Source of the DNA: a virus
Lineage: Duplodnaviria; Heunggongvirae; Uroviricota; Caudoviricetes
DNA length: 64,000 nt
Reading direction: 5' to 3' (one strand)
Virus record (IMG/VR): IMGVR_UViG_3300009709_000002
Span: 128,001 to 192,000 of that record
Below, piece after piece: positions 32,652 through 35,373 of this stretch. The position numbers were made by a program, and so were the translations under genes. The number at the start of each line of letters is the position of its first letter. The stretch's first letter is position 1. Under the pieces are notes generated by a model. It ran no database searches, was not told the DNA's origin, and worked only from the letters and a program-made list of their open reading frames with translations.

Positions 32652-33119
32652 TTAGGTGTCAAACCAAAATGTCTTACCATCTGTTGTTATTGCACAATCT
32701 GGAGAAAAGCGAATCTTTTTCACTTTCTTCATTAGTTCACCAACTTCTTGACCAATTACAGTAAAGCAAAATTGTTCACCGCCTGGTATCCAAACATCTT
32801 CCAACAACATTACTTCAGACCGCATCAAGATAGTTTTGACTATCTTATTAACATCTTTTTGTTTTGGCACTGGAAATGCTTGATCATTTTCATCAATATC
32901 GGTGTAATATTGACTCCAAAATTTGTCTAAAAGTTCAGATTGAACAATTAAATGTACAAGAAGTTCATTATCTTTGTCTCTAAAGAATACTCTATGGCAA
33001 TTGTTGTCATATCCAGTTTCTTTATCAAGATTCACCATTGATGAAATATCAGGATTCACCCATTTATTCTTGAATCCATTATAGTCGATCATCAAAATTT
33101 CAAATTTATCATCAATCAT
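32652..33119 (-). CDS. Hypothetical protein (AT-rich insert)
   Basis: Overlaps the endonuclease stop; low GC. Confidence 0.55.
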   Translation of the reverse strand: MIDDKFEILMIDYNGFKNKWVNPDISSMVNLDKETGYDNNCHRVFFRDKDNELLVHLIVQSELLDKFWSQYYTDIDENDQAFPVPKQKDVNKIVKTILMRSEVMLLEDVWIPGGEQFCFTVIGQEVGELMKKVKKIRFSPDCAITTDGKTFWFDT

Positions 33120-33720
33120 GTTTTCTCTTCTTACACTTATCACCATGATATGCAATCATAGAATTGTATTGACCTGTTTTTCCACAATGCTCACAAGTGA
33201 AAACCGGTCTATTTGATGCAGCTGTTTTATAGTTCTCGCGAGCTTCATCAGTGCGAACTTTACCAAGATTAGCCTTTCCAGCATTAGATGAATTTTCTGA
33301 GCGCCATTCTTTAGATTTGTTCATCAAAACATTGCTTATATGATCTCTTGTCTCTTTGTCATGCGTTTTACCAAAGAAACCATTCTTTTCACCAAGCGCG
33401 CTTTGTCTTCGTTTTTCTCTAGTTTCTTCAGTCATTGGTCCTCTATAACCACCAATTCCGCCTGGTGCTATATTCCACCCTATCTGGGCTACAGGACGAA
33501 GCTCTTTTTCTTTGTCATACGCATCCATGAAATTTTCAAATTCTTGGAGGATAACAAGGCACGAGAACGTGAGCCGATATTTTCTAATGCCGTGTCCGAC
33601 TTTATAAATGCTTTTTGTATGACTGTCAAACCTGCCTTTGACGTCATTCGTTACACCAACGTAACCGAGCTGTATGTTAGTTGGATCAGTTGGATGTGGG
33701 ATATGATAGAGATAGTACAA
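33112..33720 (-). mobile_element. Free-standing GIY-YIG homing endonuclease with NUMOD3 and a Zn-ribbon tail
   Basis: YYLY...YVG, RFDSH, E, WN; NGFFGKTHDKETR; CEHC; AT-rich. Confidence 0.8.
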
Positions 33721-33790: not shown

Positions 33791-35074
33791 TCATTCGTAA
33801 TCAGTTTTACTATCCTGGAAGGTATATGGCAAATCACGTGCAATTGGATCATTTACTTTCTTTTGCGGCTCAGTCATAGCCGTATAAGTGCGACGAGCGA
33901 GAGCATCACATTCAAATTTTGCATCAGCTGATGTCATTTGGCACGGAGGGCTCTTCTGTGTATACGCAGAGCATCCGCGCAGGTAACCAACGATACCCAT
34001 CTCAGCAGCGACGCGGCAGAAACGAATTGCCGAGATTACCACACCACCCGAGTTAGGGCTATCTTGCACAGACATACGAGCAGTAAGCTCATAACGAGCT
34101 CCACCAAATCCATATGCCACGATATCAAGATTAGCGATCTTGTTATCTGATCCCACATATTGACCACCCGGTTTTTGCAGCACTGTCAGTGACGGACCTG
34201 CGTAAAGCGTCATACCAGCTGTGCCAGCACCACGAACTACGTTTTGACCCTTCAGCACGTTTTCCTTCGATACGTGCTTGCTGTGCAGACGTTCCTTGTT
34301 TGCCATGTTCAGGAAGTCGGTGTTAGCCGTGCGACCTGTACGAATATGCTCTTGACCTTGCGTCGAGCCTGCAGCCATGTTCATCTGAATGTGCTGAGTA
34401 ACCATCAGGCCAGCATCCAGCATCGCACCTTGGAGAACTTCCGACAGACGGCTTGCGCCCCAGATCGAACGCATATCCGAGCCGACGATCGTCAGGCCAG
34501 CATCGATGAATTGCTGTTCGGTTTCCATCGCTTCCTTCGTCGAGATACGAGTCGGGATGCAGTTAACCATGTGGCAGCCTGCTGCTACTGCCGCGTCGAT
34601 GTAGAACTTCGATGCAGTTTCTGACCCAACCGGGCAGTAGTTGATAACAACTTCTGCTTTGATCGACTTCAGAATTTCAACTACTTCATTGAAGGTGAGT
34701 TCTGGTTGCTTGTCATCCACGCGGAAAGAAACATCTTCCGGGAAATCATGCATGTACGGTGCAACACCGTCAAGAACCGGACCCTTGTAAACACGTGCGT
34801 GAGGAGCGATTGCAGCATCGGTGATCTCAGTGACGTGATCCATGGCGCAGTTCGGCGAGGCACGAAGAGCTTCCTTCAGCGGACGGTTCACCTTGCGCTT
34901 ATCGATGTCGAAACCACCAACAAAGACGATATCTTGAGCAGCGTAGCCGCCGATATCTTCATACATCAGACCGACTTTGTCATCCGGATTTTCGATGTAA
35001 TATTGAACGCCTTCTACGAGACTTTTTGCACAGTTACCTACGCCGACGATCGCGACGCGAATTTTGTTAGACAT
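33791..35074 (-). CDS. ino1: myo-Inositol-1-phosphate synthase (bacterial/archaeal type)
   Basis: IRVAIVGVGNCA, YCPVGSE, NCIP, NTDFLNM, SKHVSK, DNK, QDSPNS, KSPP. Confidence 0.9.
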   Translation of the reverse strand: MSNKIRVAIVGVGNCAKSLVEGVQYYIENPDDKVGLMYEDIGGYAAQDIVFVGGFDIDKRKVNRPLKEALRASPNCAMDHVTEITDAAIAPHARVYKGPVLDGVAPYMHDFPEDVSFRVDDKQPELTFNEVVEILKSIKAEVVINYCPVGSETASKFYIDAAVAAGCHMVNCIPTRISTKEAMETEQQFIDAGLTIVGSDMRSIWGASRLSEVLQGAMLDAGLMVTQHIQMNMAAGSTQGQEHIRTGRTANTDFLNMANKERLHSKHVSKENVLKGQNVVRGAGTAGMTLYAGPSLTVLQKPGGQYVGSDNKIANLDIVAYGFGGARYELTARMSVQDSPNSGGVVISAIRFCRVAAEMGIVGYLRGCSAYTQKSPPCQMTSADAKFECDALARRTYTAMTEPQKKVNDPIARDLPYTFQDSKTDYE

Positions 35075-35088
35075 TGTAAGACCTTAAC

Positions 35089-35157
35089 ATTTCAGTTGTT
35101 GACGGGCATTGGTCGATGGTGTTTCACACCAGAGTAGGCCCGGGTTCAAAATGAACC
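35089..35157 (-). ncRNA. Tandem structured leader motif, copy 2 (gene-proximal)
   Basis: GGUUCA-UUU-UGAACC, CGGGC CUACUC [hairpin] CCAAU GCCCG, UC AACAACUGAAAU. Confidence 0.7.
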
Positions 35158-35196
35158 AACTAGAGGAGAGACTTGCTCAAATCAGATTGGTCCGCT

Positions 35197-35271
35197 ATTT
35201 CAGTTGTTAACGCACATTGGCTCGTATAAGACGGTGCTCATCGGAGAGTAGGTGCGGAATGCATTGCATCC
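35197..35271 (-). ncRNA. Tandem structured leader motif, copy 1
   Basis: GGAUGC-AAU-GCAUUC, CGCAC CUACUC [hairpin] CCAAU GUGCG, UU AACAACUGAAAU. Confidence 0.7.
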
Positions 35272-35280
35272 ATTACCTAA

Positions 35281-35310
35281 ATCTTAACTTCTTTCAAACA
35301 ACCTGTACAT
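35281..35310 (-). promoter_or_regulatory. Sigma70-type promoter for the ino1 leader
   Basis: ATGTAC-N18-TAAGAT; predicted +1 near 35274; a late ATAAATA also lies at 35348. Confidence 0.55.
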
Positions 35311-35373
35311 TTTAAAGTGCAAAATTGTTTGATGATTTAGATAGAAGTATTTATAAGAGTCCAGCGTGATGCT

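Follow-up and report, generated by a model that had tools for sequence, protein, structure and literature searches.

The 200-nt leader of a gene encoding a MIPS-like sugar-phosphate cyclase, which lies on the minus strand (33791-35074) of a 64,000-nt stretch of a Caudoviricetes virus genome (IMG/VR record IMGVR_UViG_3300009709_000002, positions 128,001 to 192,000; hereafter the window), holds two copies of a compact, well-defined motif that is almost certainly a real, selected, structured cis-acting RNA. We name this previously undescribed, pseudoknotted RNA the MIPS-leader motif. That it acts as a translational riboswitch, probably of the OFF type, sensing a metabolite of the MIPS reaction, is a reading to which we give about an even chance. 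A first-pass annotation of the same DNA had proposed a candidate new riboswitch or, failing that, an autogenous MIPS site, and with no match in Rfam, covarying homologues and a tie to one gene family this proposal is supported as the best reading available.

When the minus strand, to which all coordinates of the leader refer, is read directly, positions 35089-35256 contain two copies of one architecture, and every element that had been listed for them is present. In each unit a 5-bp stem, P1, surrounds CUACUC, a hairpin region P2 and CCAAU, and is followed by two nucleotides and the tail AACAACUGAAAU. In copy 1 (35197..35256), P1 is formed by 35256-35252 with 35215-35211 and encloses CUACUC (J1/2, 35251-35246), the P2 region (35245-35221) and CCAAU (J2/1, 35220-35216), with the tail at 35208-35197; in copy 2 (35089..35142), P1 is formed by 35142-35138 with 35107-35103 and encloses CUACUC (35137-35132), the P2 region (35131-35113) and CCAAU (35112-35108), with the tail at 35100-35089. 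The sequences of P1 and P2 differ between the copies but are fully compensated, whereas the unpaired strands are identical, just as the first-pass annotation had described. It was also right to place the end of copy 2 just before the Shine-Dalgarno (SD) sequence: the tail ends at 35089 and is separated by 14 nt from the AUG (35074-35072), with an SD-like AAGG (35085-35082) in between, the whole ribosome-binding region spanning 35072..35088.

Within the window the 12-nt tail is present at exactly two places, and the entire 360,227-bp virus record likewise contains exactly two instances of the composite pattern; the CTACTC..CCAAT pattern gave 4 matches against 0.6 expected. Since the folding energy of the leader is no different from that of shuffled sequences (z = -0.43), that is, whole-leader stability is unremarkable, the support for the motif is comparative and not energetic. 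An 11-codon open reading frame (ORF) that overlaps copy 1 was considered as a leader peptide and rejected, since other members do not conserve it.

The proposed regulated gene encodes a protein of 427 aa that aligns over its full length with the inositol-3-phosphate synthase of PDB 1GR0 (E 5.7e-55) and contains a match to Pfam PF01658. Its score against TIGR03450, 210 bits, lies under the equivalog cut-off, and for this reason we call the protein MIPS-like.

Relatives of this protein were confirmed on 180 viral contigs, and among the 80 loci that we examined about 70 carry a single unit of the motif directly before the ribosome-binding site. Across the family the motif lies 10-26 nt upstream of the MIPS start codon, copy 2 of the window belonging to the same spacing class. 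The sole cultured relative that we found, Ralstonia phage RP13, carries one unit. Read from its 5' end, the consensus consists of P1 (3-7 bp), CUACUC, whose last 1-3 bases open P2, the variable P2 hairpin itself, YCAA and one base N, 0-8 bases and the 3' strand of P1, then a linker of 2-7 bases, in place of which a self-contained hairpin may be inserted, AA(A/C) and CUGA-N'-AU, with a final 2-9 nt between the tail and the SD, after which comes the start codon. CUACUC, CAA and CUGA-N-AU are near-invariant. The tail thus is conserved, as had been claimed from the two copies, but the conserved part is shorter than claimed, being AA(A/C) followed by CUGA-N-AU.

Recognition of the window copies does not depend on the window itself. 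MAFFT alignments, whether of the two copies directly or of all types together, mis-placed P1, and a first covariance model built on marine members only missed the window; the model was hence iterated, from R1 to R2, on members from outside the window. R2, which had been given none of the window sequences, matches copy 1 with 32.5 bits (E 2.5e-4) and copy 2 (35089-35143) with 23.1 bits (E 0.022), and it also recovers RP13, the related locus L004 and metagenome members. Both window copies are intact, with all of the invariant nucleotides present. The first model in addition gave weak matches (18-23 bits) inside an upstream ORF at L037:1672-1706 and likewise in L017, L036 and L041; in matches of this type a 6-bp stem is present, CUACUC is joined straight to CAAAAUA and P2 is missing, and they could be due to chance or represent a relic.

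Homologues with strong covariation were thus found in number, by covariance model search and by pair counts. In a test set of 60 distinct sequences and 10 modelled base pairs, double-sided changes occur at all 10 pairs; standard pairs fill 91% of the cells, against 26-42% when the partners are slid by 1-3 columns, and the covariation score is 0.493 against 0.03-0.06, with none of 500 shuffles reaching the observed values, although it counts somewhat against us that the alignment used for these pair counts was fitted to the model and is therefore slightly biased toward structure. The raw sequences show the same pairing by eye. P1 in particular is realized by at least a dozen different complementary sequences across the members, and in copy 2 of L004 P2 has a different sequence and the hairpin still forms.

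Inverted repeats in DNA can imitate covariation of this kind and, given the unexceptional folding energy of the leader, one could perceive the repeats as a DNA-level element, such as an operator or other protein-binding repeat, or even as a chance local duplication devoid of function in RNA. We regard this as very improbable and already disfavoured. several positions accommodate G-U pairs, which on the opposite strand would turn into A-C mismatches and which therefore point to an RNA on the motif strand rather than a DNA palindrome; the conserved strands are non-palindromic and their orientation relative to the gene is constant; a putative self-cleaving ribozyme upstream of the motif in some members (see below) would imply function in RNA; and a chance duplication would not have over 60 distinct homologues.

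The conserved single strands are connected by a tertiary pair. The base that follows CAA (N) covaries with the variable base of the tail (N'): among the loci placed on the MIPS tree, a maximum-likelihood tree of 104 MIPS proteins, the combination is A:U in 83 cases, U:A in 25 and G:C in 10, with three exceptions (C:A twice, U:C once). The C:G combination is supplied by copy 1 of L268, so that all four Watson-Crick types are seen. The states are interspersed on the tree, requiring at least 4 changes for G:C, at least 7 for U:A and at least 8 for A:U. In independent contrasts across well-supported branches, a change between G and A at N is accompanied by C and U at N' in 2 of 2 cases and a change between U and A by A and U in 4-5 of 5, none being opposed; pooled, 6-7 of 7 contrasts are concordant and 0 opposed (two-sided sign test, p ~0.016 to 0.03). 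In the window the proposed pairs are U35216:A35199 in copy 1 and U35108:A35091 in copy 2. This covariation indicates that the tail folds back and docks on the internal loop, at its 3' strand. In L007, L009, L042, L070, L073 and copy 2 of L278 a self-contained hairpin is inserted between P1 and the tail, and tolerance of such inserts is what docking of the tail would lead one to expect. We also inspected by eye whether the tail could pair with CUACUC, or CUACUC with the SD; neither pairing is conserved across the types.

The first-pass annotation had been unable to assign the motif to a known family, and the searches agree with it. Rfam 15 gave no match at gathering score over the whole window, and nothing relevant at E up to 10 for the leader of the window, a marine member and an acidobacterial member, nor at either threshold for eight related loci; in particular, there was no match among the models for nadA/NAD+-I, pnuC/NAD+-II, preQ1-I/II/III, SAM-II/V, glmS, manA and wcaG. 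In the searchable full-text literature on inositol, ino1 and MIPS in connection with riboswitches, RNA motifs and phages no description of the motif turned up, and the single paper there that mentions ino1 concerns an antisense RNA in M. tuberculosis.

In its working principle the motif is closest to the small pseudoknot translational riboswitches, such as preQ1-I, SAM-II and similar, and is a member of none of them. Like preQ1-I, SAM-II/SAM-V, guanidine-III and NAD+-II, it comprises 45-60 nt, combines a hairpin with an A-rich 3' tail that docks onto a loop, ends a few nucleotides from the SD, has no terminator and displays highly conserved unpaired nucleotides. Unlike them, it carries an extra variable hairpin, P2, in its internal loop, its strands CUACUC, YCAA and CUGA-N-AU match no such class, its SD is not visibly part of a pseudoknot, and its gene association is with MIPS only. 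A second likeness would be one of logic. The glmS ribozyme is known to sense a derivative of a hexose phosphate, and the motif, too, would make expression of an enzyme that converts sugar phosphates depend on a phosphorylated cyclitol or sugar; glmS, however, is large and cleaves itself, whereas the motif bears no sign of cleavage and no similarity to it in sequence or structure.

On these grounds we propose the following mechanism. P1 closes an internal loop made up of CUACU(C) as its 5' strand and YCAA-N as its 3' strand, with the variable P2 between them, and the A-rich tail ending in CUGA-N'-AU folds back, bringing N' into a pair with N. A ligand pocket would then be formed by the three single strands that are invariant, and the docked tail, ending 2-9 nt before the SD, would hinder binding of the 30S subunit, thus creating an OFF switch. 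Feedback by a product of the MIPS reaction would be the most economical logic for such a device. There is no intrinsic terminator in the leader and in most members too little room for one, which indicates control at the level of translation.

Several observations weigh against this proposal. We found no conserved alternative pairing that would sequester the SD, and it is for this reason from the proximity of tail and SD that we infer the expression platform. Complementarity between the P2 loop and the SD does not exceed that of composition-matched shuffles (3.97 versus 3.59 nt); kissing of the two as a general feature was consequently rejected, since many marine members have CUCC loops but shuffles do equally well. 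The sequence by itself names no ligand, and both the binding of a ligand and its identity are proposals. Finally, some viral contigs as well as Spirochaetota and Flavobacteriaceae encode MIPS proteins that share 70-75% identity with those of motif bearers and yet do without the motif, which is hence dispensable, and an association with a single gene is just as compatible with autoregulation by that gene's product.

The extent of that association is best judged from scans that were blind to the gene. In viral contigs, 37 of 117 pattern rows had a proper P1, and every one of these is followed at 10-26 nt by a MIPS homologue, the remaining rows showing no convincing fold. A stricter pattern applied to metagenomes gave 51 rows, 12 of them well formed; eleven of these precede MIPS, and the contig of the twelfth ends before any downstream gene. 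One locus was found in each of five whole genomes searched, and the 360-kb genome of the window likewise has one. Tabulated by the genes that follow it, the motif is tied to a single gene family, MIPS: no instance before a non-MIPS gene was seen in the viral scan, the metagenome scan, the five whole genomes or 150 sampled Acidobacteriota.

The motif is not confined to phages. It stands upstream of MIPS in five Acidobacteriota genomes, where one locus adjoins the 3' end of rpoC and another adjoins DAO and HAD genes; these neighbours identify the loci as parts of cellular chromosomes, so no phage-specific factor is needed for whatever the motif does. It is found in 5 of 87 genomes of one Acidobacteriota order and in 0 of 150 others sampled across the phylum. 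MIPS genes free of the motif form the Chitinophagaceae and Spirochaetota clades and further occur in one Flavobacteriaceae metagenome-assembled genome (MAG) and two small viral groups. Because the deepest MIPS branch (46-47% identity) carries the motif and the groups just named do without it, an old association followed by repeated loss is the simplest history. Some MAG contigs are filed under other bacteria, namely Planctomycetaceae TMED10, Pirellulales, Bdellovibrionales and Rhodobacteraceae (L203, L205, L206, L207 and L221); their MIPS genes and leaders are nearly identical to those of marine viral contigs, and they are probably phage contigs that were binned with bacteria.

An element that is linked to MIPS only, travels with the gene between phages and bacteria and abuts the ribosome-binding site could be an autogenous translational operator, to which the MIPS protein, an NAD-binding Rossmann-fold oligomer, binds so as to repress its own translation. 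Autogenous translational operators are known in T4-like phages (gp32, gp43, RegA), and like these, and like the leaders of ribosomal proteins, the motif is a structured element adjoining the ribosome-binding site, here in a T4-like giant phage. Tandem sites would moreover suit a multimeric binder, the two copies then serving the MIPS oligomer. The T4-like operators, however, do not leave the lineage of their phage or gene, and the proteins that they bind are dedicated to nucleic acids. The motif, in contrast, crosses from one phage group to another and to the chromosomes of bacteria, and what its gene encodes is an enzyme of metabolism that is not known to bind RNA. The motif-free relatives at 70-75% identity mentioned above also leave no obvious co-dependence of protein and RNA, and the design of the motif, with three invariant strands, a buried tertiary pair, variable stems and tolerated inserts, resembles that of an aptamer. 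All in all, we consider autogenous repression rather unlikely and prefer the riboswitch.

The region 5' of the motif bears on a different alternative. On the minus strand of the window, a T4-late-promoter-like box, TATAAATA, can be read directly at 35348..35355, 77 nt upstream of the first P0 hairpin (described below), and marks a possible start region; across the soil and giant-phage members this box lies 22-77 nt upstream (window, L232:11091-11098 and L268 at about 696-689 on the minus strand). In marine members a TATAAC/TATAAT-like box is situated 11-20 nt before P1. The first-pass annotation had placed a transcription start about 3 nt before copy 1; we found no sigma-70-like site there, and the placement has no support. 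At L011, L034, L045, L265, L274 and L276, though not in the window, a hammerhead-like type I element ends 4-11 nt before P1. The example at L011:1878-1931 scores 25.2 bits against RF00163 (E 2.4e-4), below the gathering score of 34, and in these elements the CUGAUGA / GAAAC / GUC core is intact while the stems differ between loci; cleavage by such an element would fall immediately 5' of the motif. With promoter-like boxes and hammerhead-like elements shortly upstream, the motif tends to be located right at the 5' end of the message or close to it. A contig from an RNA library (run X4; 34939-35366, minus strand) was not used as evidence of transcription, being from one run, possibly due to DNA carry-over and lacking a 5' end.

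Such a position would also be expected of a leader that senses nothing and serves as a 5' stabiliser, an insulator for processing or folding, a translation enhancer or standby site, or the target of a general host factor, whereby the MIPS cassette would gain autonomous expression in many genomic contexts. The TATAAC/TATAAT or TATAAATA boxes, the hammerhead-like element 4-11 nt before P1 in one clade and the fact that the motif works in very different hosts would all agree with this. Nevertheless, with some 20 unpaired nucleotides held invariant and a tertiary pair that covaries, the constraint on the motif far exceeds what a stabilising hairpin needs, an exclusive tie to one enzyme family would be unexpected for a generic enhancer, and the tandem duplication has left both pockets fully conserved. 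We consider a non-sensing role improbable and rank it third, after the riboswitch and autogenous repression.

The duplication seen in the window has recurred. Tandem units are also present in L004 (90% protein identity), L268 and L278, that is, in at least two other lineages; in L278 the two units may be followed, where the contig ends, by the beginning of a third. Two homologous aptamer-like units per leader, both of them selected, are reminiscent of the glycine riboswitch, of NAD+-I nadA with its two similar domains and of tandem TPP and SAM riboswitches, and the linker of the motif is likewise capable of alternative pairing. Unlike in those systems, a single copy is the rule here and the tandem form is lineage-specific (window/L004, L268 and L278), and there is no similarity in sequence or by model. 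At L232 a complete first unit and a window-like linker are followed by a degenerate second unit (L232:11175-11285), in which CUACUC is paired with an upstream GAGUA in a hairpin, a CCAAAAU stretch lies in the loop and the tail-like AAACAACU precedes the SD; this unit may have decayed from an aptamer, or it may be an expression platform of another kind.

Both window copies are preceded by an abutting 6-bp hairpin, P0, read directly at 35257..35271 for copy 1 and at 35143..35157 for copy 2. The first-pass annotation had treated these hairpins as part of the architecture, and whereas they are indeed present at both copies, they are accessory and outside the family core: an abutting P0 also occurs in L004, where that of copy 2 is kept with a longer loop, in RP13, L258 and L268, but most members lack it. 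P0 is perhaps an accessory that stacks on P1.

The linker between the copies (35153..35196) overlaps the 5' arm of the P0 of copy 2. As had been noticed at first reading, it can pair alternatively with copy 2: a helix of 35193-35187 with 35159-35153 is used by the minimum free energy fold and shares bases with that arm, and an analogous linker helix overlaps the P0 of the second unit in L268. On account of these shared bases, linker helix and P0 are mutually exclusive in both the window and L268, which supports the earlier idea of a possible switch. Under the riboswitch reading, this phage would have two aptamers in series, and the competition between the linker helix and the hairpin stacked on the second P1 could couple them and sharpen the response; such a role of the exclusion, and with it coupling between the copies, we infer.

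The leader is conserved even where the neighbouring sequence has changed. Soil and moss metagenome contigs of close relatives differ by 7 and 14 substitutions over 801 nt and by 0 in the 200-nt leader, and the linker (35153-35196) has 0 substitutions in related soil phages. The one substitution seen in the leader (run X6) falls in the P2 loop of copy 1, and the same variant is found in L004; in one run there is an extra base between the SD and the AUG. As judged from these comparisons of sequence, the leader is under purifying selection.

A more far-reaching version of the riboswitch model, which we hold tentatively and with somewhat less than an even chance, is that of a new riboswitch class for a product or substrate of MIPS (inositol phosphate, inositol or glucose-6-phosphate) that forms part of a mobile "gene plus switch" cassette, is doubled in giant soil phages for a sharper response and is trimmed by a hammerhead in some phages. 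To our knowledge, no riboswitch or other RNA regulator of inositol or cyclitol metabolism has been known and phage-borne riboswitch classes are few. If the model were true, no RNA sensing a cyclitol would have preceded the motif, its cassette would be exchanged among phages whose hosts are unrelated and with bacterial chromosomes, and hammerhead trimming would place the switch at the 5' end of the message in some phages. The occurrence of the motif in phages from marine, freshwater and soil habitats as well as in Acidobacteriota shows that auxiliary metabolic genes can take their regulatory RNAs along with them. A motif of about 50 nt with a clear consensus, a testable tertiary pair and a chemically narrow gene association makes for a small ligand search space, and with Ralstonia phage RP13 a cultured system is available.

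In marine phage loci (L066:3265-4744, L032:3272-4706 and L183:6733-8200), the MIPS-like gene is followed by an overlapping ORF of 124-149 aa with no known family and then by a protein of about 355 aa with a 5-hmdU DNA kinase helical domain (PF18723). The presence of this protein suggests that the MIPS-like enzyme is part of a thymidine hypermodification module, in which case the switch may gate the supply of building blocks for DNA hypermodification and so link RNA sensing to the chemistry of the phage genome. In the window, directly downstream of the MIPS-like gene, Pfam identifies a gene of the homing-endonuclease type with GIY-YIG and NUMOD3 domains (33112-33720, minus strand), and a plus-strand ORF of 143 aa (34706-35137), antisense to copy 2 and to the start of the MIPS-like gene, is probably spurious.
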